A stretch of 37,461 nucleotides of DNA from Elusimicrobiales bacterium. Its GTDB lineage: Bacteria > Elusimicrobiota > Elusimicrobia > Elusimicrobiales > UBA9959. Below are positions 7,611 to 20,329 of the stretch, piece by piece. Under the pieces are notes generated by a model. That model had not been told where the DNA came from and did no database searches. It saw only the letters and a program-made list of their open reading frames with translations. Location: positions 1 through 37,461 of the forward strand of contig JBMFKQ010000014.1 in the NCBI GenBank assembly GCA_049972095.1. Reading direction: 5' to 3'. How positions within the stretch are numbered: position 1 is the first letter of the stretch; the number at the start of each line of letters is the position of its first letter. The translations under genes were made by a program, and so were the position numbers.

Positions 7611-9335
7611 TCACCTCCTTTCCATTCCGTAATAATAAACACCCATTATAACAGGATTATCAATAAAGCCCTCTATATTCTCCCTCACAGCCATTATCCC
7701 ATAAGGATGTACTGTGTATATCTGATAGATATTTTCAAAAGCATAATTTATAATAGACTCATAGAGTCTTTTTCTTTTATTTATATCATTTTCTCTTACA
7801 GCATTCTCTATCATCTTATCAAGCTTAAGGTCTTTAAATCCTTGTGCTTGAGGATATCTTCCCATAGAATGATAAAATGCAAAAACAAAATTATGCGGAT
7901 CAGCATAATCCCCCACCCATCCCCTTGTGAAAAGTGGCATCCTTCTATTCTGTGACTTTTCAAGATAAAGTGCCCAATCTATGCCTCTTATATCAATTCT
8001 AAACTTTGGATTTATTGACTCAATCTCTTTTTTGAGTATCTCGCAGGCAAGCTGTCTTATATCACTTCCAGTGTTATATGTAAGTGTAAATTTAAAGCCT
8101 TTCTCCCAGAGCTTTCCATTAAATGCTTTTTTAAAATATTTTTCAGCCTCAGTTCTGCTGTATTCATATTTTTTTATCTTATCAAACATCATAACGGAAG
8201 GCGGAACAGGGTTATATGCCCTTTCAGCTTTGTTCTTCAGGCTTTGCTTAAGAAAAAGGTCATAATTAAACGCATAAGCAAAAGCCTTTCTGACATTTTC
8301 ATCCTTAAAAAAATCAGGTGGAATCCCCTCTCCATCAAGCCTACCACTACCTATATCAGGATTTGCAGTAGGATTTATATCAAATGTAAAGAAAAAGACG
8401 GGATCCGTTGAAAGCCTTTTTAGGTTTGGGTAAAGTCTTACACCTTTGACATTCTCAAGCTGTGATTCATATATTCTTGGCACCTCAATTATATCAGCAT
8501 CTCCTTTTTCAATCATCAGTTTTCTTGTAGAAAACTCACTTACTGTTTTTTGAACAACCATATCAATCTTAGCCTTTCCACGCCAGTATCCATCAAATGA
8601 TTTAAGTATTATTTGTTTCTTTGCTCTATCCCAGCTAACTACAGAGAAAGGACCGCTACCGCATTCAGAATCTAAAATTCTTGATCTCTCTCTTCCGCCT
8701 CCACTAAACTCCTTTATTGTTTCATACCTTCCATCCCATTCACCTGCCTTAATTGCCCATCTGCTATTCATAACATAAGACCATCTTGCTATTATTGAAA
8801 GAAATGGAGCAAAAGGTCTTTTAAGGGTTATAACAACACTATTTTTTTCAACCTTAACAGCCTTTTCAAAATCAGTCTTGTCTATTTTAAGATTACCATT
8901 CTCATCCTTAACACTTGTTATACCAAAAATAGGCTCAAGCAGAAGCGCTGATGGACCGCCAGGCATATCTGTTATCATAAACCTCAAAAGTGAGTACTTA
9001 ACATCCTCAGGTTCAAGTTCATCACCGTTGTGAAACTTAATACCCTTCCTTATCGGAAATATATATCTTTTTCCATCTAAAGATATAAGCCCATTTTCTT
9101 TTGAAGGGACTTTTTCAGATATAAGAGGTATAAAAGAGTCAAGTTTATCACCATCAAAACCTATAAGCGTCTCATATACATTTATAAGGGTCCCATGTGT
9201 TATTGCATCGTAGGAATAAGCAGGATCAAGGGATGTTATCTCTCCAGTGTGGGCAAAGTATATTATCTTGCTTTTATCAGGATTAAAGCATCCTGTTAAA
9301 AAAGAGATAACTAAAAGAAAATAAATCTTTCTCAT
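7611..9335 (-). CDS. ABC transporter substrate-binding lipoprotein, family 5 (peptide/nickel)
   Basis: Lipobox LTGC, SLDPA…VYETL, KFHNG…DVKYS, GSGPF, GWVGDYADP. Confidence 0.92.
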   Translation of the reverse strand: MRKIYFLLVISFLTGCFNPDKSKIIYFAHTGEITSLDPAYSYDAITHGTLINVYETLIGFDGDKLDSFIPLISEKVPSKENGLISLDGKRYIFPIRKGIKFHNGDELEPEDVKYSLLRFMITDMPGGPSALLLEPIFGITSVKDENGNLKIDKTDFEKAVKVEKNSVVITLKRPFAPFLSIIARWSYVMNSRWAIKAGEWDGRYETIKEFSGGGRERSRILDSECGSGPFSVVSWDRAKKQIILKSFDGYWRGKAKIDMVVQKTVSEFSTRKLMIEKGDADIIEVPRIYESQLENVKGVRLYPNLKRLSTDPVFFFTFDINPTANPDIGSGRLDGEGIPPDFFKDENVRKAFAYAFNYDLFLKQSLKNKAERAYNPVPPSVMMFDKIKKYEYSRTEAEKYFKKAFNGKLWEKGFKFTLTYNTGSDIRQLACEILKKEIESINPKFRIDIRGIDWALYLEKSQNRRMPLFTRGWVGDYADPHNFVFAFYHSMGRYPQAQGFKDLKLDKMIENAVRENDINKRKRLYESIINYAFENIYQIYTVHPYGIMAVRENIEGFIDNPVIMGVYYYGMERR

Positions 9336-10351
9336 TATCCCTCCCTGATTATGCTTATAACCTTTGAAATTCTATTTTCATCTGCAACTATATATGAAGT
9401 GCCGTATTTGTTTTCTATCCAGGCTTTGAAAAACTCTTTTGAATCATAAACAATCTCAACACTGCTGTTATCACAAGCAGCAGGGTCATTTACTATGATA
9501 TCACCTTTTGAGGTCATTCCCTTTATAACGACAAGATGTCCTTTTGTCTTTTTAATCGGTGCTTTTTTTAACTCTCCTGCACTATATGATATGCTTGCAA
9601 TGACAGGAAGTTCAATAGAAAGAAGTCTATAAAGGATTTCAAATGAATTAATCCTTGCAATAAACGAATAAAAACCTAATGTTGAGGCATATACAGTGTT
9701 GAAAAGCCAATTACCATATATAGCACCAGAATTATCATAAACAGCCTGAGCAACCATAACAGGATCTATTTCCACCCCATAGTAATCAAAAAGCATTGAC
9801 AGTGATGTTGGGCTACATATATCCTGTTTATAGTTAAAGTGTTGAATCATCTGTGATATAGGTTTTACAAAAAGCTTTATGCTCCTTAAGGGAACAAATT
9901 TTTTATACTCATTCCTCTTACCCCTATCAGTCATAACAACATTAATAAGCCTTATTCTTCTCTTTGTATCCAAAGACGAAGGCAGAAGTGTTATTTCAGC
10001 ACCTATCTTATTTATTTTTTTATCAAACCTAAGCAGATCTACTTCAACAGATGCTTTAGGTATTCTTTTAGAAAAACTATATGATTTGAAGGGAGAAAAA
10101 TCTCCCATACAAAATACATTATCCGAATCATAAAAAGAAAAACAAACTTTATCATTCTCATCAATATCAACCGAGGCTGATATAATGACCTCATCAAATC
10201 CTGATGGCAAGTCTATCTCAAACCTTACACTCGATCTTTCTTTATTGACAGCTGTAAGCAAATCTGGTATACTGCCCTTTTTAAAGTTATCAACCTCAAG
10301 GTTAATATCATAGGCATCTGAAATAATCCTATTAACAGAATGTGGATTCAT
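9335..10351 (-). CDS. Peptidase C39-like family protein
   Basis: SQM…ICSPTS (Gln/Cys), YGNW, GHLVV (His), VNDPA (Asp). Confidence 0.8.
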   Translation of the reverse strand: MNPHSVNRIISDAYDINLEVDNFKKGSIPDLLTAVNKERSSVRFEIDLPSGFDEVIISASVDIDENDKVCFSFYDSDNVFCMGDFSPFKSYSFSKRIPKASVEVDLLRFDKKINKIGAEITLLPSSLDTKRRIRLINVVMTDRGKRNEYKKFVPLRSIKLFVKPISQMIQHFNYKQDICSPTSLSMLFDYYGVEIDPVMVAQAVYDNSGAIYGNWLFNTVYASTLGFYSFIARINSFEILYRLLSIELPVIASISYSAGELKKAPIKKTKGHLVVIKGMTSKGDIIVNDPAACDNSSVEIVYDSKEFFKAWIENKYGTSYIVADENRISKVISIIREG

Positions 10352-10418: not shown

Positions 10419-11267
10419 ATGAAAGCCTTATTAGTTTTGCTAAGAACAAGCCTACTTATATTTTTAGGATTTGTGTTAATCTCAATCCTTTACTTTTTTC
10501 TTTATTCAAAACCCTCACATTATCACGGAAAAATCAAACCCCTCGATTTTTCGCTCTCATATGAGGATGTAAGCGTAAAATCGTATGATGGAAAAAGATT
10601 AAAGGCATGGTTTATCCCATCAAAAAAAAGTCTATCAGCCATAATAATGCTTCATGGATGGCCAGCAGACAAATCCGATATTCTTCCTTATACACATTTT
10701 CTATCCAAAAATTTTTCACTCCTATACACAGATATAAGAGGTATGGGTGAAAGCGAGGGGATGATATGTGGTGGAAAAGATGAAATCAAAGATATAAAAA
10801 GATGGATAGATTATCTAAGATCAAGGAATATTAAAAGGATAGGAATCTTCGGATATTCATATGGCGGTTTTATAGCAACAAGAGCGATAAATGAAATAGA
10901 GGAACTGGATTTTGCTATTGTAGATTCACCTTTTAACAGTATAAGCTGGGTAATAAAAAAATTGGTTCTTTATAAAAATCCTGCAGAAAAAATACTACTA
11001 CCCTTGATATCCTTAAACTATAAAATATTCTGTGGTGAAAGCGATAAAGGCTTCTCAGTTGATAATGCATTGAAAAGAATAAAAAAGAAGACTCTTATCA
11101 TATGCGGTGATAAAGATGATATATGCTTCAATGAAAGTATTAAATATAATTTGAAAATCAATCCGTATGTAAAGATTCAAATAATGGAAGGATTTTCTCA
11201 TGGTGAAACACCCTTCAGTAAGAACTACAAAAATATCATAAACAGTTTTCTAAATAACAGCATATGA
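10419..11267 (+). CDS. Alpha/beta hydrolase with an N-terminal membrane anchor
   Basis: MLHG, DIRGMGESEG, GYSYGG nucleophile elbow, GDKDD, SHG. Confidence 0.9.
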   Translation: MKALLVLLRTSLLIFLGFVLISILYFFLYSKPSHYHGKIKPLDFSLSYEDVSVKSYDGKRLKAWFIPSKKSLSAIIMLHGWPADKSDILPYTHFLSKNFSLLYTDIRGMGESEGMICGGKDEIKDIKRWIDYLRSRNIKRIGIFGYSYGGFIATRAINEIEELDFAIVDSPFNSISWVIKKLVLYKNPAEKILLPLISLNYKIFCGESDKGFSVDNALKRIKKKTLIICGDKDDICFNESIKYNLKINPYVKIQIMEGFSHGETPFSKNYKNIINSFLNNSI

Positions 11268-11800
11268 AGATAATTCTGGTTTTATCATCACTAATCCTTT
11301 CACAAACACAATGCCCAAACAATAGAACCTCTATAACAACACCGTGCTATGGTGAGTGTGGAAGTTTTATTGATGAAAACTCTAATGGAATATGTGATAT
11401 ATGGGAAAGATATAATGCTATAAAGAAAAAGAAACCTTCTTTAGAATCTAAAAAAACTTTTCAGAAGCCACAAAACAAAGTTGATCAAAAAAAAGAGTTC
11501 AAAAAAACATCCTTTTCAAACAGACTCTTTTCAAATGGGGTCTTTTATATTCTTTTCATAACTATACTTATGTCAATAGCATCTGAGATATTCTTCAAAA
11601 ACTCAAAGACTATTAGGATTATGTGGGATTGGATACTTTTGTTATCAACACTTATATCTGCATTAAGCGGTTTTATTTTATATTTTGGATTTTTTGAAGA
11701 ACTAAGAAAATTTTTTTATCCTCTTCATATTCAATCCTCCTCAGTATTTTTCATAGCAGCAGTTTATCATACAGTAAAAAGATTTAGATATATGATTTAA
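11264..11800 (+). CDS. Small membrane protein, DUF4405-like, with an exported Cys-rich N-terminal motif
   Basis: Signal-like start; CPNN…PCYGECGSFIDENSNGICD; three TM segments with a His pair (LHIQ…VYHTV). Confidence 0.55.
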   Translation: MKIILVLSSLILSQTQCPNNRTSITTPCYGECGSFIDENSNGICDIWERYNAIKKKKPSLESKKTFQKPQNKVDQKKEFKKTSFSNRLFSNGVFYILFITILMSIASEIFFKNSKTIRIMWDWILLLSTLISALSGFILYFGFFEELRKFFYPLHIQSSSVFFIAAVYHTVKRFRYMI

Positions 11801-13539
11801 GATGATTTGAGAAAATATAGCCTTAGCGAATTAAAAACAGCAATCAAGATTGTCAAAAACAATACAGAAATAAAATGTCCTTTTTGAAGACAGTAAAAAT
11901 ATCTACACAAAAAAGCAAAAAGGATAGGAAGTATAAACAGATGAATAAAACAAATAATAGCACTACTCTGAGATGTTACATTTAAAATAAAGGAGGCATA
12001 TCTTTTGAGTTCCTTTACAATCCTCGGGTCATTTCTCATAAAAACAACATCGCAAGGAAATGAAAAAGACTCTGGATGTTTTTTGACTATGACTCTTACA
12101 TCACACTCAGCAAGTGCATCAAAATCATCAGCTGAGCTTCCTATTCCTATAATTCTTGAGCCAGATATTTTAAGCCTAAGAATGAACCCGAGTTTTTCAT
12201 GAGCTGAAAGGCAGGACATAGAAAAATTTTTATCACAAGCAAGAAGGGTTTTAAGACCGGATGCTTTAAGAGTAAGAAGTTCATCCTTTACAATACCATC
12301 AGAAGAGAAAAAAACAACCGTATCAGCATAATTTATTGTCTCAAGAAGATCAATGTTTTTTATAAGAAAACCCTTTTTAACCCCTAAGGATGAAAGAATG
12401 AAATAAGCTGATGGGAAGATAATCCATAAGGCATAAGGATATGATATAAAGAAAATAATAAAAAATGACTCAATGGTTGAAAGTCTAATACGACCAAAAT
12501 ATGAAAGAGCAGCAAAAAAAAGAGCTAAAAGAGGAATAAACCTGATGTATTTCTCAGATGCTTTATAAATTCTATCTTCAAAACCTTTAGCAGCTTTGTT
12601 TTGAAACATCATTCTTCTAATCCCTCCATAAAAAAAGGAATCTTTTGGCTCATTTTCAACGATGAGTTTTATTCCTCCATCAACAATAAAACTACCAGAA
12701 ATAACCTTATCTCCACTTTTCTTATTGGTATAATGATCTGAATTTTTTATAAGTGACTCATCAACAGTAGCACTTCCATCAATAACACATCCATCAAAGC
12801 AGACAAAATCTCCAGAAGATAGAACAACAATATCTCCTTTTTTTAAATCAGTTGAAGGTATATGCATCTCAATACCATCCTTTATAACCCTTAAAAAAAC
12901 TTGCATAGGATAGCTGAATGAAGCTAATGAGATAGAATCTTTAAAATGCAGATAGTTTGAAAGATCAAAACCAATAGCAATAAAAAATAGAAAAATAAAG
13001 CTTGAGTAAAAATCAATAAAGTTGAATGGAAAATATAAAGGAAAGAAGATTTTCAAGATAGTATAGAGAACAGAAAAAACTATCCACAGTGAGGTTAAAG
13101 GATAGATGATAAAACTTTTTTTATTGACATACGATGCCCTTTTTAGATCACACAAAAACCACAATGATGCAAAAAGATAAATCAAAGATAATATGTAGAT
13201 ATTTGTGTCAAATTGCTTTGAAAAACAAAAGATTATAAGCACAATAGAAAAAATAAAAAGCCTTAAAAAATTAAATGTAGGTTTATCTTCCTCAATCTTT
13301 TTTAAACCACAGAATCTTTCAAGACACATTTCAATTGATGGCACAATAGAAGATAGCCTTCTTGAAATCTTATCTGAGGTTGTTGATGCGGTATCATAAA
13401 TAACCTTTATAACACCACTTTTTCTAAAAATATCAATAGAAATAACCCCACCCATTTTTCTAATGGTCTCATATGCAGTATCATAAACACTATCATTAGG
13501 AACATCATTAACTGCAAAGATAATCTCTTTTGTAGTCAT
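11797..13539 (-). CDS. Degenerate P1B-type (heavy-metal) ATPase homologue, predicted catalytically inactive
   Basis: HMA-like N-terminus, actuator domain (GDIVVL…DG…VDESL), GFLIK…DTVVF and terminal NSLRL are retained; CxxC, TGE, CPC, DKTGT, TGD and GDGxND are all altered and the N domain is missing. Confidence 0.85.
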   Translation of the reverse strand: MTTKEIIFAVNDVPNDSVYDTAYETIRKMGGVISIDIFRKSGVIKVIYDTASTTSDKISRRLSSIVPSIEMCLERFCGLKKIEEDKPTFNFLRLFIFSIVLIIFCFSKQFDTNIYILSLIYLFASLWFLCDLKRASYVNKKSFIIYPLTSLWIVFSVLYTILKIFFPLYFPFNFIDFYSSFIFLFFIAIGFDLSNYLHFKDSISLASFSYPMQVFLRVIKDGIEMHIPSTDLKKGDIVVLSSGDFVCFDGCVIDGSATVDESLIKNSDHYTNKKSGDKVISGSFIVDGGIKLIVENEPKDSFFYGGIRRMMFQNKAAKGFEDRIYKASEKYIRFIPLLALFFAALSYFGRIRLSTIESFFIIFFISYPYALWIIFPSAYFILSSLGVKKGFLIKNIDLLETINYADTVVFFSSDGIVKDELLTLKASGLKTLLACDKNFSMSCLSAHEKLGFILRLKISGSRIIGIGSSADDFDALAECDVRVIVKKHPESFSFPCDVVFMRNDPRIVKELKRYASFILNVTSQSSAIICFIHLFILPILFAFLCRYFYCLQKGHFISVLFLTILIAVFNSLRLYFLKSS

Positions 13540-13551
13540 ATAATTTAAGAG

Positions 13552-14250
13552 CTAAGGCTGAGTTATGTCTTTGCCAAATGCCAAGATGGAAGCATTTTTA
13601 ACATCACCACTTTTAAGTAAACTTTCAAGGAAAACTGAAAATCTATAAGATGAGTATTTATCAATAAGATAACTAACAAAACTGCTTGTATTTGCATAGT
13701 ATATATCAAGCTTGCTTTTTTCAAGGGTTGATGGTGAGATATAAAATAGCTGTTCTAATGGTATAAGATTACTATTTGAATTTAAGATACCTAAGTAATA
13801 GCTCCTTTTATCAGAGCAGAAGTGCGAGACAAGATACTCACAAAATCCATAATAAAGCCATGGATAAAGTTTCTCTGCTTGACCAAAAATATCACTAACC
13901 ATTCCATAAACAACACTTACAACAACATCGCAGGAAGATGTTGAAAAAATAATTGTTTGATTTTCTTGTAATGTAGCATTATAAGAAGACTCATAAACAA
14001 TAAATCTATATGGATAATTATTGAGCTTATTAGAAAAAGAGTAATTTAAAACAAGATAACTAAAAATATTTTCAGCAGTATTTGCAATTTCAAAAAGATT
14101 AAAAGATTTATCTGAATAGAAACAGAAATGAAGAGAGCAATATGAGTGATTAAAATTTGAAAATTGAGCTTCATCCATTATGTTAGTAATCCCAATAGAG
14201 GAGCATGACAACCATAAAAATGAACTAAATAACAGAATAAATCCCTTCAT
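13552..14250 (-). CDS. Lipoprotein with a peptidase MA-like fold lacking HExxH
   Basis: Lipobox-like WLSC; PWLYYGFCEY resembles PxWLxEGxAxY; YANTSSFVSYLIDKY resembles the family C-terminal helix; no HExxH anywhere in the ORF. Confidence 0.55.
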   Translation of the reverse strand: MKGFILLFSSFLWLSCSSIGITNIMDEAQFSNFNHSYCSLHFCFYSDKSFNLFEIANTAENIFSYLVLNYSFSNKLNNYPYRFIVYESSYNATLQENQTIIFSTSSCDVVVSVVYGMVSDIFGQAEKLYPWLYYGFCEYLVSHFCSDKRSYYLGILNSNSNLIPLEQLFYISPSTLEKSKLDIYYANTSSFVSYLIDKYSSYRFSVFLESLLKSGDVKNASILAFGKDITQP

Positions 14251-16181
14251 GTTATCTTAACAATACCTTTCTTAATCACCATCTTTGAAAATTCCACGGG
14301 TAAAGGAAGTAGATCAAATGGGATTTTAAATGAAATAAAATTAGAAAGAAATCTTCCTATCTCAATAAAGGCTATTTTAATCTTCACAAAATTAATATTT
14401 AAACATCCATCTTTAACATCAGGATAAAAATCAAAAACAATCTCTCCAAAAAAAAACGACCTTTTAACACTGATGAGATCATCAAGCAATATAACCTCAG
14501 TGTTTTTTTTCATAAGTTCTTCAAAAAATCTCTCAAGCGAATACTGACTTATAATCGCATTGATAATCTTTATTTTTGTATCCTTTATCTCAAGCTTTAA
14601 ACCATAGCTATCAATCCCCTTATAGCCAAGGTATGCTATATCAACAGAGGTTGTTTTCTTCAAAGTATCATAAACCATTCTCATATCAGATATTGTAAGC
14701 TCCTTCGATGAAAAGCCTTTGATGCTTACATCTTTTTGAGATTCTTTAAGACACCAAGGGTTTTTAAGAAGATAAATACCTTTGTAGAAAAAGATCTCAT
14801 CAAATCTTTTAACACCATCAGTTTTTTTATCTGTTATCACATAACAAGAAAAAGGAAAGAGATCCGGTGGGATATCTACGAATTTAAAACTTTCAACTCC
14901 ATAGTTATGCTTTATTGTTTCAAAGGATTGAGATGAAATATTTTTCCCACTGATGTTAACTGATACTATGTTATTAGACACACTATTTTTTTTCTCATCC
15001 CTAAGAGCATAAAGAATATTCTTAACAATTCTTGATTCATAAAAGCCAATCGGACTATATCCCCAAACAGGATATTTCCCAAGATTAATTGAAAAAATAT
15101 TACTACCTGATACAAAAAGAAAAAAGATCATAAAATAAATAAAATATCTTCTTACTGATGGGAAAAACATAACAGAAAAACCAACAATAAACGCAGGAAC
15201 AGCAAATTTTATAGGCTCAGGACTAATAGGAATTAAAAGATAAAAAAGAGAAGGATAAAAAAACCATGCAAATATCTCCTTGCGTGCAACATATACTCCA
15301 TAGACAGCAAAAAGCATCCATATAAAGAAAGGAGTTATTATAACAGAATTAAAAACACCCATAGATTTTATGTATTCAGATAAAAGCCCTTTGAGATTGA
15401 AAAAATTTAAACTCATCTCCAAAAAGGAGAATTTTACAATATAGAGAAGAAAAAAGCGGATATAAAATATCAATGTAATTAAAGCAGATGGAACAAAAAT
15501 TAACATAACATAATTTGAATATACTGTGCTGAAAAGAAAGGTTGTAAATGAAAAGCATGGCAGGGTATATATAAGAAAAAACTTATCAGAAAGAAGCCCA
15601 AGTGAATAGAAAAATAGATAATATGGAACTGATGTATACTGCTCTTCATTTTTCATTTTAAGATAATAATAATATGTCCACACAACACATACAAATGCAA
15701 GGATAGATGGCTTTGGGGTTCTTGAGATTTCTATAAAAAAGGGTGTTGAAAGAAGAGATAATAAAGCAAGAAAAGCTGATGACTCATTTCTTGTAACTGC
15801 AACAAGCCTAAAAAAACCAATCATTGCCAAAATACTTAGAAGTATGTTAATAACAAAAACAGTCCAGGGTGTTATGGTAAAAAAGTAGGAAAAAAGCTTA
15901 AATATTATATAATACATCGGCATGTCAAAACCTCTTGAAAGCTTATCCAAAAGGATATCTTTAACAGTCAATTTTGAGAAGTTAAAATCCTGTATAAAAT
16001 ATCTAAGAGTATCTTGCTCAGAGTAAAAGTAGTAAAGATTGATAAAGAAATAAAGAAAGACTATGCATAAAAGATAAAGATAATATTTTTTGTCAATTTT
16101 TCTTGGATATGACACATCTTTCTCAAAGAGTATATTCTCAATTGCGATACGTGTTGCAAGAAATTTATCCTTAAAACTCAT
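14247..16181 (-). CDS. Polytopic membrane glycosyltransferase (GT-C, GT39/ArnT-like) with a soluble C-terminal domain
   Basis: Many TM helices; MPMYY, LLSTPFF…SR and LGLLSDK segments resemble the PMT_2 family but are divergent. Confidence 0.6.
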   Translation of the reverse strand: MSFKDKFLATRIAIENILFEKDVSYPRKIDKKYYLYLLCIVFLYFFINLYYFYSEQDTLRYFIQDFNFSKLTVKDILLDKLSRGFDMPMYYIIFKLFSYFFTITPWTVFVINILLSILAMIGFFRLVAVTRNESSAFLALLSLLSTPFFIEISRTPKPSILAFVCVVWTYYYYLKMKNEEQYTSVPYYLFFYSLGLLSDKFFLIYTLPCFSFTTFLFSTVYSNYVMLIFVPSALITLIFYIRFFLLYIVKFSFLEMSLNFFNLKGLLSEYIKSMGVFNSVIITPFFIWMLFAVYGVYVARKEIFAWFFYPSLFYLLIPISPEPIKFAVPAFIVGFSVMFFPSVRRYFIYFMIFFLFVSGSNIFSINLGKYPVWGYSPIGFYESRIVKNILYALRDEKKNSVSNNIVSVNISGKNISSQSFETIKHNYGVESFKFVDIPPDLFPFSCYVITDKKTDGVKRFDEIFFYKGIYLLKNPWCLKESQKDVSIKGFSSKELTISDMRMVYDTLKKTTSVDIAYLGYKGIDSYGLKLEIKDTKIKIINAIISQYSLERFFEELMKKNTEVILLDDLISVKRSFFFGEIVFDFYPDVKDGCLNINFVKIKIAFIEIGRFLSNFISFKIPFDLLPLPVEFSKMVIKKGIVKIT

Positions 16182-17113
16182 TTGTTCCTACCTTTTTTGC
16201 GAGTATTCATTATTTTCATTCTCTTTTTATATTCAGTTTCTGAATTCTTATCAACACTTAAAGCCATATCACAATATTCTTTTGCATTATCAAATCTTGA
16301 CAACTTTATATAAATATCCGCAGCATAGTAAAGATATGAGGATTTTGAAAAATTTGAAAGTTTTATTGCAGTGTTTATATCATTAATAGCATCAACCATT
16401 CTGGAAAGCTTTTCATTTATAACAGCTCTTAGATAATAATAAATAGCATCCTCCTTTATCTTAATCGCCCTATCTATATAATCAAGAGCTAAACGAGGAT
16501 CAAGACCAACACATACCTTTGCAGCGGTATAATAAATAACATCATTTGTATCCGATCTTTTCATAAGACTAACAAGATCACTATGTGCTTCTTTTAGCAT
16601 AGATAGCTTGTAATATGAAAGTGCACGATAGTATCTTGCAAGAGGCATTCTATCATCACAAAGCTCAATAGCCTTTGAAAAATCCTCAATAGCTTGTGAT
16701 AATAAACCCCTGTAATAATTTACAACACCTCTATTATAATAACCATAGCGATACGAAGGATTTATCTCAAGTGTTTTTTCTATATAAGGCAAAGCCTTAT
16801 CGTAATAACCCATTTCTATATAGAGAGATGCAAGATTGTTTAAAGCTGCAAGATGATCTGACTTATAGGTTATTGCTCTGAGATAATCATCTACAGCTTT
16901 CATCTTATCACCTATCTTTTCATAAGCCATTGCCCTTGAGACATAAGCATCTGAATAATCATTTCTGCTTATTATTGCACGGTTATAGATATCTATGGCT
17001 CTATAATAATCCCCTGATGCAAAAAATGAATTTCCTCTTTTAAGATAGTACTCAGGCGACTGTGAACAAGATATGATAAATAGCAAGAGGTAAAGCAGAA
17101 CGAAACATCTCAT
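16178..17113 (-). CDS. TPR-repeat lipoprotein
   Basis: Lipobox IISC followed by multiple TPR units (AYVSRAMAY, ALNNLASLY, GYYNRGVVNY). Confidence 0.9.
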   Translation of the reverse strand: MRCFVLLYLLLFIISCSQSPEYYLKRGNSFFASGDYYRAIDIYNRAIISRNDYSDAYVSRAMAYEKIGDKMKAVDDYLRAITYKSDHLAALNNLASLYIEMGYYDKALPYIEKTLEINPSYRYGYYNRGVVNYYRGLLSQAIEDFSKAIELCDDRMPLARYYRALSYYKLSMLKEAHSDLVSLMKRSDTNDVIYYTAAKVCVGLDPRLALDYIDRAIKIKEDAIYYYLRAVINEKLSRMVDAINDINTAIKLSNFSKSSYLYYAADIYIKLSRFDNAKEYCDMALSVDKNSETEYKKRMKIMNTRKKGRNK

Positions 17114-17568
17114 ACATCCCCCTTCTTTCTATCTCTATCAAGAATAATCAGTATAACACCAAAGGTTATAAAAAAATCTGCAAGATTAAAAATAGCAGGG
17201 AAAAACTTAAAATCAATAAAATCAATGACATGCCCAAATCTTATCCTGTCATATATATTTCCAAGAGCCCCACCTATTATAAAATGAATAGAATAAAAGG
17301 AGAATGAGGTTTTGACTTTTCTTTTAACATAGAGAAGAAAAGCAAGAAGTGTTATATTAAAAAAGATAAAAAAAGCATTTATTCCTGAAAAAAGCCCAAA
17401 AGCAACACCTGTATTTCTCACAGGAAGAATTCTTAAAATACCACCAAAATAGCTCCTCCATAAATTAGGATTTTCTGATATAAGATTTTTTGTAATAACA
17501 TCAAGTCCAAAAACAAAAAGAACAATTAAAGAGGCTAAAAAACTTTTTTGCTTAAGTATTTGAAGCAT
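17110..17568 (-). CDS. lspA: Lipoprotein signal peptidase II
   Basis: NTGVAFG, GGALGNIYDR, VIDFI, FNLAD; directly downstream of ileS. Confidence 0.96.
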   Translation of the reverse strand: MLQILKQKSFLASLIVLFVFGLDVITKNLISENPNLWRSYFGGILRILPVRNTGVAFGLFSGINAFFIFFNITLLAFLLYVKRKVKTSFSFYSIHFIIGGALGNIYDRIRFGHVIDFIDFKFFPAIFNLADFFITFGVILIILDRDRKKGDV

Positions 17569-20329
17569 TTTCTCTCAATGCTTTTGCACACTTAGCACAC
17601 ACCTCAGCATAAGCCTTATCAACCCCTATATCCACTCTCCACTGCCAGCATCTGGGGCATTTTGAACCATCAGCCTTAACAGCCTTAACAGAAAACTCTC
17701 CCCTTTTAACCTCACCTTGAGAAACTATGCATGCAGCAATGATCTCATCAATATTTTTTGAAACAAAATCATACATATCCCCATCTGCAGTTATAATTAT
17801 CTTTGCTTCAAGTGATGAGCCTATAATAGATTCTTTTCTTATCTTTTCTATCTCCTTAAGTACGTGTTCTCTTATAGAAAGAATTCTTAAATACTTGTTT
17901 TCTACACTCTCATCAAAACAAGGTGCGATAATCTCATCAATTCTGTTAAGAAAAACACTTTCTGAAAGCGAATGGTCAATCTCTTTTTTAAGAGTCTGCC
18001 ACACCTCCTCAGATGTGAACGAAAGAATTGGAGCTGTTAAAATACACAGTCCTTTTAACATATCATACATTGCGGTCTGTGCTGATCTTCTTTCCCTTGA
18101 GTTTAAAGAATAGGTGTATAGCCTATCTTTAAGAACATCCAGATAAAAGGATGAAAGATCAATTATACAAAAATCAGCTATCTTCCTTATAGCATCTCTG
18201 TATTCAAACTCCTGCCAATCCTTTTTAACATCATTGGTTAATCTGCTAAATCTTGAAAGTATGTAGCGATCTATATTCTCCATCTCACTGTAAACTATCC
18301 TTTTATCGGGTTTAAAATCTGCAAGATTTCCAAGGAGGTATCTAAAGGTGTTTCTTATTTTTCTGTAAAGATCTACCGGCACTGATAGAAGAGCATCAGA
18401 TATTCTAATATCCTGCTTCCAATCACTTAGTGAAACCCATAGTCTTAATATCTCAGCCCCATATTTAGATATCACATCCTGAGGCGAAACCACATTTCCA
18501 AGAGATTTATGCATTGCCTTTCCATACTCATCAAGGACAAAGCCATGGGTAAGAACTGTTTTATAAGGAGCTTTAGAGTTGAGTGCAACTGATGGTATAA
18601 GAGAGGTCTGAAACCAACCTCTGTGCTGATCCGAACCTTCAAGATAAAGATCTGCCGGATATGTTGCTTTTTCTACACACACATTATGCCACGAAACACC
18701 TGAATCAAACCATACATCAAGTATATCCTTCTCCTTCTCAAAATCACTGCTTCCACACTCACATTTATAATCCCCAAGAATCTTCTTTGCATCTTCAAAA
18801 AACCAAAAATCACTACCCTGCTTTCTTATCCTTTCTGCAATGGAATTCAAGATCTGACTATCATTTACAATCCTTCTACATCTCTTACACCAAAAAGCGA
18901 TTATAGGAGTGCCCCAATACCTCTGCCTTGACAAACACCAATCAGGCCTTATCTTAATCATTGATGTTATTCTATCATATCCTTGAGTTGGAAGCCATTT
19001 AACATTCAAACACTCTCTTAAAAGATCATCCCTTAAAGAATTTTTATCAATCTTAAGAAACCACTGCTCCGTTGCTCTGAATATTATAGGATTTTTACAT
19101 CTCCAACAATGTGGATAACTATGTGATATAGTAGAAGAGTTTATAAGAAGATTTTTATTTCTTAGTATTTCAATAATCTGGGTATTGGCATCAAAGACAA
19201 ACCTATCCTCAAGAGCTTTTATCTCTGAGGTAAATCTTCCTCTTTCATCCACAGGACAAAACACCTCAAGCCCCCACTTTTTTCCTGCAAAATAGTCCTC
19301 TTCACCATGTCCTGGAGCTATATGAACCATTCCACTTCCGCTTGTCATATCAACAAAATTGCTAAATATAACCCTTCTTGGATAACGCTGTGATTTATCA
19401 AGCATATCTGAAAAAGGCGCTTCATAAAGAGTTTTTTCAAGTTCTATACCTTTTAGTTTTGTAATTACACTGGCGCTGATAGAGGTGTTTTTGACAAAAT
19501 CCTCAAGCAGTTTTTCTGCAACAACAAGATGCCCATCACTAACCTCAATGACAAGATAATCCTCATTCTCATTTACAGCAACAGCCATATTTGCAGGAAG
19601 TGTCCATGGGGTTGTCGTCCATACAACAAGATAGAGGTTTGTGTAATTTAGCTTTGATTCAATAACCTTAAATCTCACATATATAGAGGGTGATGTTTTT
19701 TCTTTATACTCTACCTCTGCCTCTGCAAGAGCAGTTTCACATACAGCACACCAATATATAGTTTTTTTGTCTCTTTCTATGTAACCTTTGTAGAAAAGAT
19801 TTAGAAATGCCTTTACTACGCCTGATTCATATTCATTTGACATAGTTATGTATGGATTTTCCCAATCTCCAAAAACACCAAGTCTTTTAAACTCATCCCT
19901 TTGAATCTTTATAAATCTTTCTGCAAACTCCCTTGCTTTTTTTCTAAAAGATACAACATCGTTTATATGTCTTTTTGATATCTTCAACTCTTTAAGAAGC
20001 TGCTGTTCTATGGGAAGCCCATGGCAATCCCAACCTGGTATGTAAGGAGTCTGATATCCCATAAGTGAGTATGATTTAACAACAAAATCCTTTAATATTT
20101 TGTTAAGTGCATGACCTATATGTATATGTCCATTTGCATAAGGTGGGCCATCATGAAGGAAATAGACAGGTGCTGATGAGTTCTTTTCAATCATCCTTTT
20201 GTAAACATCAATCTTGCTCCAGAGATCTATTATCTGTGGCTCTTTCTGAACAAGGTTTGCTTTCATTGAAAAGGATGTTTTAGGTAGGAAAACAGTGTTT
20301 GAGAATGATTTATTTTTCGTCTTATCCAT
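17552..20329 (-). CDS. ileS: Isoleucine--tRNA ligase (type 1)
   Basis: DGPPYANGHIHIGH, GWDCHGLPIE, WTTTPWT, EGSDQHRGWF, AMHKS, C-terminal Zn finger CPRC…CAKC. Confidence 0.98.
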   Translation of the reverse strand: MDKTKNKSFSNTVFLPKTSFSMKANLVQKEPQIIDLWSKIDVYKRMIEKNSSAPVYFLHDGPPYANGHIHIGHALNKILKDFVVKSYSLMGYQTPYIPGWDCHGLPIEQQLLKELKISKRHINDVVSFRKKAREFAERFIKIQRDEFKRLGVFGDWENPYITMSNEYESGVVKAFLNLFYKGYIERDKKTIYWCAVCETALAEAEVEYKEKTSPSIYVRFKVIESKLNYTNLYLVVWTTTPWTLPANMAVAVNENEDYLVIEVSDGHLVVAEKLLEDFVKNTSISASVITKLKGIELEKTLYEAPFSDMLDKSQRYPRRVIFSNFVDMTSGSGMVHIAPGHGEEDYFAGKKWGLEVFCPVDERGRFTSEIKALEDRFVFDANTQIIEILRNKNLLINSSTISHSYPHCWRCKNPIIFRATEQWFLKIDKNSLRDDLLRECLNVKWLPTQGYDRITSMIKIRPDWCLSRQRYWGTPIIAFWCKRCRRIVNDSQILNSIAERIRKQGSDFWFFEDAKKILGDYKCECGSSDFEKEKDILDVWFDSGVSWHNVCVEKATYPADLYLEGSDQHRGWFQTSLIPSVALNSKAPYKTVLTHGFVLDEYGKAMHKSLGNVVSPQDVISKYGAEILRLWVSLSDWKQDIRISDALLSVPVDLYRKIRNTFRYLLGNLADFKPDKRIVYSEMENIDRYILSRFSRLTNDVKKDWQEFEYRDAIRKIADFCIIDLSSFYLDVLKDRLYTYSLNSRERRSAQTAMYDMLKGLCILTAPILSFTSEEVWQTLKKEIDHSLSESVFLNRIDEIIAPCFDESVENKYLRILSIREHVLKEIEKIRKESIIGSSLEAKIIITADGDMYDFVSKNIDEIIAACIVSQGEVKRGEFSVKAVKADGSKCPRCWQWRVDIGVDKAYAEVCAKCAKALRENASNT

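Follow-up and report, generated by a model that had tools for sequence, protein, structure and literature searches.

A copper-type P1B ATPase gene of Elusimicrobiales that lost its N domain and catalytic motifs probably encodes a non-enzymatic membrane protein

P-type ATPases are textbook ion pumps in which the nucleotide-binding (N), phosphorylation (P) and actuator (A) domains are treated as indispensable. The stretch of DNA analysed here (the window; 37,461 nucleotides of contig JBMFKQ010000014.1 from an Elusimicrobiales bacterium) carries a gene that raises the question of what such a protein can be once these parts are taken away. An open reading frame (ORF) on the minus strand resembles a copper-type P1B ATPase, has no N domain and has lost every signature motif. 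Is it a pump of an unfamiliar kind, a decaying relic, or a protein with another task? We regard it as very likely that the window protein is maintained by selection and does not pump. The best overall explanation, towards which we lean with some reserve, is a canonical pump turned into a non-catalytic membrane protein that selection has kept. Below, G000 denotes the genome of the window (96.5% complete) and group A denotes the dead, N-less family that includes the window protein.

The ORF contains no internal stop codon, whereas its base composition predicts 41 stops over 580 codons; the remaining five frames of the interval 11797-13539 hold 23-69 stops each. The only Pfam match of the 580-residue protein was PF00122 (E1-E2_ATPase, A domain and membrane part) at residues 217-381, with 83.1 bits against a cut-off of 28.1; neither PF00702 (HAD hydrolase) nor PF00403 (HMA) was matched. 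The scores against TIGR01525 (heavy-metal P-type ATPase; 111.9 bits, curated cut-off 346.25) and TIGR01511 (79.5 bits, cut-off 397) stayed below the cut-offs, and by curated hidden Markov model cut-off the sequence would stand outside the P1B subfamily. The best phmmer match in the Protein Data Bank (PDB) was Archaeoglobus fulgidus CopA (7r0g/3j08; E 7.6e-17). This match came in two pieces, pairing query residues 140-417 with chain residues 75-352 and query residues 447-573 with chain residues 520-646. Between the pieces, the query has 30 residues and the chain has 168, which correspond to the N domain. In the alignment with canonical relatives, 12 residues of the window protein replace an N domain of 127-139 residues, and the inserted N domain expected of a P-type ATPase is absent. 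The window protein is a descendant of the P-type ATPases that retains none of their catalytic hallmarks. The ORF and its parts are as follows.

11797-13539, minus strand: ATPase-like ORF, ATG start, 580 residues, no internal stop; derived from a Cu-type P1B ATPase, without N domain and with dead motifs; member of group A
13306-13539, minus strand: HMA-like ferredoxin-fold domain, residues 1-78, without CxxC and with an invariant RKMGGV; 14 of 78 columns invariant, and no other part is better conserved by comparison with canonical pumps
12919-13269, minus strand: helices MA, MB, M1 and M2, residues 91-207; model helices 91-138, 145-165 and 177-207
12640-12918, minus strand: A domain, residues 208-300; VDESL kept, TGES replaced by KNSD (12736-12747); PF00122, beta-rich fold
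12376-12639, minus strand: M3-M4, residues 301-388; CPC replaced by YPY (12433-12441), both M4 prolines kept, M4 broken at 367-370 in the model
12025-12375, minus strand: truncated P domain, residues 389-505; Rossmann-like fold kept, GSSADD at 12124-12141, K449, D472, D480 and D497 retained
12286-12309, minus strand: dead phosphorylation site FSSDG, residues 411-415 (12295-12309), with the junction of the missing N domain, from the alignment and the PDB match
11800-12024, minus strand: M5-M6, residues 506-580; YN and MxxSS lost, the least conserved part within group A

The canonical relative P0086 served as the motif reference. The metal site of its HMA region, IHCASCS, is VPNDSVY in the window protein, and the Cys residues are gone. 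The TGES loop of the A domain became KNSD, and TGE is found in none of the seven group-A proteins. The metal site of M4 changed from CPC to YPY. At the phosphorylation site FDKTGT became FFSSDG, with Phe, Tyr or Leu at the Asp position in 7/7 group-A proteins. Further into the P domain, ASGD reads LACD (that is, TGD became ACD) and GDGLND reads GSSADD; only the first Gly and the last Asp of GDGxND are invariant in group A. FIH aligns with the YN segment of M5 and LFLTI with MSLSS of M6, and both motifs are lost. VDES, GFLIKN, DTVVF and NSLRL are retained. As far as sequence and model reach, the protein demonstrably lacks the usual means of ATP binding and aspartyl-phosphate formation and the Cu(I) site, and would be neither a pump nor an ATPase.

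A first-pass annotation, made from the letters of the window, had reported an intact 580-codon frame with these motif replacements and the N-domain deletion, and the alignment with P0086, the PDB match and Pfam bear this out. Its positions for YPY, FSSDG and GSSADD were exact, whereas that for KNSD was off by one base. It had also considered that a structural alignment might restore an Asp at the phosphorylation site. None is restored: D414, which lies three residues downstream, is missing or displaced in 3/7 members of group A.

Are these losses peculiar to one genome? A word-indexed search returned five more proteins of 587-598 residues, 35-51% identical over the full length and matching PF00122 only, followed by ordinary pumps of ~730-850 residues at E about 1e-20. 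An exhaustive profile search over 1.84 billion representatives added one further member, P0085, and left a wide gap between group A (557-877 bits) and the next protein (242 bits). Group A therefore comprises the window protein, P0002-P0006 and P0085 (n = 7; 580-598 residues), and the six others are 34-52% identical to the window protein. All seven lack every signature motif and have 12 residues in the place of the N domain, so that the motif loss anticipated for orthologues is shared, deletion included, by six further proteins. The marks common to the group, namely full-length similarity, RKMGG[VI], [VI]DESL, YP[YSF] and the NS/NL C-terminal motifs, are all present in the window protein. Sixty-five columns are invariant across the seven sequences and spread over every domain. 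Among them are RKMGG (HMA-like domain), DES (A domain), YP...W..FP..Y (M4) and K449, G467, D472, D480 and D497 (P domain).

Among GTDB species representatives, group A was carried by G000 and one Elusimicrobiales metagenome-assembled genome (MAG), L024; a 2-kb contig labelled Caldisericota, L023, also carries it. Nine-tenths identity or more joins few sequences in this group, as described below. No close orthologue was found in 400 other sampled genomes of the phylum (best score 104 bits), and a scan of metagenome contigs gave 45 pattern matches, none of them a relative of the window gene. For codon comparison, group-A DNA came from the genome contig scan and consisted of L023 and L024, while P0002-P0005 and P0085 were available as proteins. 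The record of L023 (2073 bp, 99% identity to the window ORF) assigns it to a Caldisericota MAG, and the relatives of the window belong to Elusimicrobiota; the label is probably a binning error in that record. In public records, group-A proteins are named 'hypothetical protein'.

We also examined whether the fold outlived the motifs. The AlphaFold model of the window protein, built from a 41-sequence alignment, had a mean pLDDT of 87.8 and a pTM of 0.84. It shows a beta-alpha-beta-beta-alpha-beta N-terminal domain, eight membrane helices, a beta-rich A domain and a Rossmann-like P domain. The helical segments span residues 91-138, 145-165, 177-207, 320-347, 355-388, 506-547 and 553-573, with M4 broken at the YPY proline, and the two halves of the P domain are linked by a short loop where the N domain would be. 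The eight helices with the MA/MB platform typical of P1B pumps are present in the model, and the A-domain, P-domain and membrane fold of P-type ATPases is present by PF00122, the model and the fold matches. An HMA domain is defined by its fold together with GMxCxxC; here the model has the fold and the Cys site is absent. Foldseek matched the model to ATP7B (E 1.9e-21), Legionella pneumophila CopA (LpCopA), A. fulgidus CopA, ZntA, CadA and KdpB. The lowest root-mean-square deviation, 6.5 Å with TMq 0.61, was obtained for the E2P form of LpCopA (4bbj), and the model may have a slight preference for E2-like states. The comparison with CopA that the first-pass annotation had proposed thus finds the CopA architecture kept.

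Is the product under selection? The ATPase-like genes of the window and L024 differ at a p-distance of 0.478 over aligned nucleotides. Divergence is lowest at codon position 2 (0.39), intermediate at position 1 (0.495) and highest at position 3 (0.548), which is the coding pattern, and all nine gap columns of the alignment are in frame. In a neutral simulation of 2000 replicates, the frame stayed open in 0.85% at 5% divergence and in none at 10% or more. Because the frame is open at 47.8% divergence and neutral change closes more than 99% of frames at 5%, the translated product is under selection, with a constraint looser than that on neighbouring genes. Taken with the model, this shows a folded eight-helix membrane protein whose HMA-like, A and truncated P domains are kept by selection. 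Hot-spring metagenome contigs X1 and X2 are >99% identical to the window; X1 has seven differences in the ORF, too few for dN/dS.

The place of the constraint was assessed by comparing group A (n = 7) with eight canonical operon pumps chosen to span genera, two sets that are unmatched for divergence. The ratio of mean pairwise identity, group A over canonical, was as follows.

HMA-like domain: 0.96
MA-MB: 0.94
A domain: 0.81
P domain: 0.71-0.80
M1-M2: 0.64
M3-M4: 0.62
M5-M6: 0.53

Canonical pumps conserve the M3-M6 core and the P domain most, whereas in group A the former ion path is least conserved. Within M4 of group A, the invariant Y367, W372, F375 and Y379, spaced by 5, 3 and 4 residues, replace canonical Cys, Gly, Val and Val. 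We infer that this aromatic face may fill the former ion path.

From which gene does the window ORF descend? The genes upstream of it bear on this.

13552-14250, minus strand: lipoprotein-like Peptidase_MA_2 homologue, 232 residues, phmmer E 1.5e-11 to the G060 protein; 12-bp gap to the start of the ATPase-like ORF
14247-16181, minus strand: PMT_2-like (GT-C) polytopic membrane protein, 644 residues, PF13231 with 27.3 bits against a cut-off of 26.1; orthologues in L024, L022, L025 and L026
16178-17113, minus strand: TPR lipoprotein, 311 residues, first gene of a conserved four-gene block
17110-17568, minus strand: signal peptidase II, PF01252, collinear upstream gene
17552-20329, minus strand: isoleucyl-tRNA-synthetase-type class I synthetase, PF00133 and PF06827, collinear upstream gene

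The PMT_2-like gene overlaps each neighbouring gene by 4 bp. In G060, a genome of the same family and another genus, the order is TPR lipoprotein, PMT_2-like protein, a 263-residue lipoprotein that is a Peptidase_MA_2 member, a 604-residue ATPase-like protein, a C39-like peptidase and a solute-binding protein. This gene order is repeated in the window and in L024, and these two are collinear over ~19 kb, a span in which 19 L024 ORFs keep their order. In a further two genomes of the genus of G060, an ATPase of 724-725 residues occupies the slot of the ATPase-like protein. A Peptidase_MA_2 gene lies directly upstream of the ATPase in 16 genomes of 7 genera; it was not seen there in L004 (match near the contig end), in L009, L012 and L016 (other families) or in L024. 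By position, the window ORF is orthologous to a canonical Cu(I)-type P1B pump whose gene closes the TPR / PMT_2 (GT-C) / Peptidase_MA_2 / ATPase operon of sister genera. The 21 ATPase ORFs from the fetched loci (17 of the family, the window, L024 and 2 from other families) fall into these classes.

15 family ORFs: fully canonical Cu-type, with CxxC, TGE, CPC, DKTGT, SGD, GDGxND, YN and MxxSS and an N region of 133-137 residues
G154 operon pump (L026 8571-10748): full length, slightly eroded, with DKPGT for DKTGT and GNGLND for GDGLND
G060 ATPase-like ORF: N-less, without CxxC or CPC; Asp, TGQS and GDGLND kept
Window and L024 ATPase-like ORFs: dead
2 ORFs from other families: canonical

The G154 pump may represent an initial step in this erosion. 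We must also note that the G154 genome carries a second, canonical pump. It had been foreseen as a counter-argument that close relatives might carry a canonical ATPase; this applies to other genera only, and the nearest relatives share the loss.

A complex prediction for the dead pump with residues 1-400 of the PMT_2-like neighbour scored 0.00 against a mark of 0.32 and counts neither way. Downstream, the C39-like peptidase gene of the window (9335-10351, minus strand) encodes 338 residues, compared with 350 in L024, and its G060 orthologue has 640 residues with an added NlpC/P60 domain. A DUF4405 membrane protein with a Cys-rich N-terminus (11264-11800, plus strand) is convergent with the ATPase-like gene and overlaps its 3' end by 4 bp. 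This gene and an adjacent alpha/beta hydrolase gene are found at the same place in L024, and the G060 locus has no DUF4405 gene there. A scan of the window gave 45 promoter-like sites where 52.4 were expected and 4 terminator-like sites where 5.0 were expected.

The gene directly upstream has met a similar fate. The 232-residue partner has VVVS--VVYGMV and WLYYG where 15/15 relatives have HE[IM][TA]H and W[IL][NSA]EG, so its zinc site is lost; neither the HExxH of Peptidase_MA_2 nor the downstream Glu that supplies the third ligand is present. This alignment excludes duplicate loci and L010, which is cut off at the edge of its locus. Pfam gave no match for the partner. Its model had a pLDDT of 79.7, and the listed fold matches were MA-clan zinc peptidases, all weak: the best was ERAP1 (E 4.4e-3), TMq reached 0.62, and nothing was found at E <= 0.001. 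In L024 (9559-10001) all that is left of the MA-like gene is a fragment corresponding to residues 7-81 of the window copy (44% identical), followed by stops and frame changes, and the ATPase-like gene beside it is intact. Relative to G060, the ATPase-like gene (0.11 bits per residue) and the MA-like gene (0.17) are the most diverged of the collinear genes, the rest of which reach 0.38-1.6. Two adjacent enzymes of one operon died together in the window lineage. Because the pump and the zinc peptidase died together in the same lineage, a functional link between them, such as a shared ancestral task, is suggested.

In what order were the parts lost? We used a 50-row tree and a smaller, outgroup-rooted tree of 25 of those rows (LG+G4), which left out P0003, P0157, three group-C proteins and most general pumps. 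In the 50-row tree, group A is monophyletic (SH-aLRT 100), and its stem measures 2.18 substitutions per site. The smaller tree unites all degenerate forms of this lineage in a single clade (SH-aLRT 99), with the canonical pumps of G286 and G154 as its neighbours. This clade contains group A, group B (P0087, P0088 and the G060 protein), P0177 and P0091. Every member lacks the HMA cysteines and CPC, but group B retains the Asp and GDGxND, and 112 residues of the N region survive in P0091. As read from these sequences, the loss of the metal sites therefore probably preceded that of the ATP machinery. Holding the N-less rows together without P0091 cost 21.4 log-likelihood units (AU p = 0.004), in a grouping that was chosen after seeing the tree and involves long branches. 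This result suggests that more than one N-domain deletion may have occurred within the degenerate clade.

P0091 (692 residues) and P0093 (736 residues) keep a region of N-domain size and have degenerate DKTGT, CPC and GDG; therefore, motif death can precede the deletion of the N domain. P0092, P0142 and P0180, from other lineages and in one case from Lachnospiraceae MAGs, have 20-33 residues in the place of the N domain. They keep CxxC, TGES, CPC, DKTGT, TGD and GDGIND and recur in independent assemblies. Because they fall among unrelated general pumps in the 50-row tree, their N-domain losses are independent events. A protein atlas also lists Bacillota clusters of ~600 residues with PF00122 only, and loss of the N domain from P1B pumps seems to be recurrent.

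Several observations weigh against a selected, non-catalytic protein, and some of them would be expected of a slowly decaying relic in a shrinking genome, its frame merely not yet broken. By the NG86 method, the window and L024 genes gave pN 0.448, pS 0.590 and omega about 0.59, with dS saturated for all genes of the region, and these values do not show the dN/dS well below 1 that had been proposed as a test. The dN of 0.68 is the highest among seven neighbouring genes (0.20-0.49). Compared with the 99%-identical L023 there are 9 differences, 6 nonsynonymous and 3 synonymous. Of the genomes listed for its family, G000 is the smallest (1.44 Mb, compared with 1.6-4.5 Mb), which fits ongoing reduction. 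The stem of group A is very long, and the Peptidase_MA_2 partner is dead in the window and broken in L024, where it is dispensable. Group A is also rare, with 90% clusters of 1-4 sequences each, and the stretch occurs in DNA contigs from hot-spring metagenomes of 2 studies, with no RNA record among those listed. The mismatch in divergence between the two sets behind the constraint ratios belongs here as well. A scaffold role, finally, would be read solely from the conservation pattern. A relic is nevertheless improbable. Seven lineages, 34-52% identical to the window protein, all have full-length frames at a divergence that the neutral simulation does not survive; codon-position divergence follows the coding pattern, the invariant columns lie in every domain, and a truly unconstrained neighbour, the MA-like gene of L024, did break. 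The first-pass view of a maintained pseudo-enzyme rather than random decay stands, given that six relatives share the losses, the frames are open at 48% divergence and the partner gene decayed.

What, then, could a maintained protein do? The first-pass annotation had named a passive carrier and a regulator of an active pump, and neither fared well. A carrier or channel that works without ATP through a remodelled membrane core would account for the eight helices, the M4 break at a conserved proline and the M4 residues invariant in group A (Y367, P368, W372, F375, P376 and Y379). It is unlikely because the ion-path helices are the least conserved. Moreover, the known ligands (Cys of CPC, YN and MxxSS) gave way to aromatic and aliphatic residues, no new conserved acidic, thiol or Met residue appeared in the membrane, and the small-to-bulky M4 changes (Cys to Tyr, Gly to Trp, Val to Phe and Val to Tyr) would fill the path rather than open it. 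We consider a ligand-binding sensor, signalling without catalysis through the Cys-less HMA-like domain or through what is left of the phosphate pocket in the P domain (K449, D472 and D480), to be very unlikely. The HMA-like domain is conserved as in real pumps and has the invariant basic residues R27, K28, K57 and R61; K449 and D472, which we take to be the counterparts of HAD motifs III and IV, are invariant too. However, no output domain or partner is known, and the retained residues may be structural only. A subunit that regulates an active P-type pump, or acts on it as a dominant negative, would suit genus g3, in which canonical pumps accompany a degenerate operon copy in the same genome (two in G060, one in G154; G286 has the canonical operon pump only). 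This role is scarcely credible for the window because G000 has no other P-type ATPase: the window ORF is the sole PF00122 match, and the same search matched 14/14 control genomes. In L024, a genome of ~0.8 Mb whose completeness is not known, the dead copy is likewise the only PF00122 gene. A split pump was rejected, as G000 has no stand-alone N domain; a search with the N domain of P0086 gave no match in G000 at E <= 1, and its sole match in G060 was a separate canonical pump.

We therefore return to the canonical pump turned non-catalytic membrane protein. In one clade, the operon pump would have lost its metal ligands, the CxxC of the HMA domain and the CPC of M4. The ATP machinery would have followed: the catalytic Asp, TGES and GDGxND would have disappeared, and the N domain would have been removed by deletion, probably on more than one occasion. 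What remained may be a scaffold or adaptor that is anchored in the membrane and works through a conserved cytoplasmic headpiece, the ion path in M4 being filled by the invariant aromatic face. That the role is one of scaffold or adaptor, rather than something else, we put forward tentatively, a little short of an even call. A more specific version, which we hold to be doubtful, is a stepwise change from pump to essential structural subunit at one operon position, in which the metal ligands went first, the N domain was deleted at least twice and M4 was sealed last. The headpiece, made up of the Cys-less HMA-like, A and P domains, would then be a docking module, possibly for GT-C/TPR envelope-modifying machinery from the adjacent genes. 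If this were true, a second role besides transport would already have existed in the ancestral pump and persisted after pumping ceased.

Since the catalytic and metal-binding residues are lost and yet the gene stays intact in a few hot-spring bacteria, an ion pump has probably become a non-enzymatic membrane protein there. The value of the case lies in the graded series at one operon address: canonical, eroded, N-less with Asp, and fully dead forms make the order of dispensability and a non-transport role testable. It is also a warning for annotation. Close relatives in group B are labelled 'HAD-IC family P-type ATPase [Elusimicrobiales bacterium]', and such labels cannot denote ordinary ATP-driven pumps here. 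Such genomes would be credited with too much copper-export capacity; the PF00122 search leaves G000 without a functional P-type ATPase. In the full-text literature that we searched, which lies apart from subscription-journal surveys of the superfamily, no dead or N-less P1B ATPase is described. The passages of a 2023 review (PMC10654040) retrieved by a term search describe none either.

The P1B-1 Cu(I) pumps, represented by L. pneumophila CopA (4bbj/3rfu), A. fulgidus CopA (7r0g/3j08) and human ATP7B (7si3), share with the window protein the eight-helix core of MA/MB and M1-M6, the M4 break at a proline, the A fold, the Rossmann-like P domain and the ferredoxin-like N-terminus. Unlike them, the window protein has no N domain, DKTGT Asp, TGES, TGD, GDGxND, CPC, YN, MxxSS or CxxC. 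The nearest canonical branch is that of P0086 (G286, 724 residues; 14 others in the family), which occupies the same operon slot and has a KMGGV-type HMA region; unlike the window protein, to which it is ~20% identical, it has every motif and a 133-residue N domain. The G060-type proteins (the P0089 cluster of 11, P0087 and P0088) belong to the same slot and clade, with the N domain replaced by 17-21 residues and the HMA Cys and CPC lost. In contrast to the window protein, they keep the phosphorylation Asp, TG[EKQ][AS], EKHS and GDG[LF]ND and still match PF00702. A parallel from outside the superfamily is offered by the iRhoms, dead rhomboid proteases that are membrane pseudoenzymes. Their fold is unrelated; as in the window protein, a polytopic membrane enzyme fold was kept after catalysis was lost, and a non-catalytic role is presumed.

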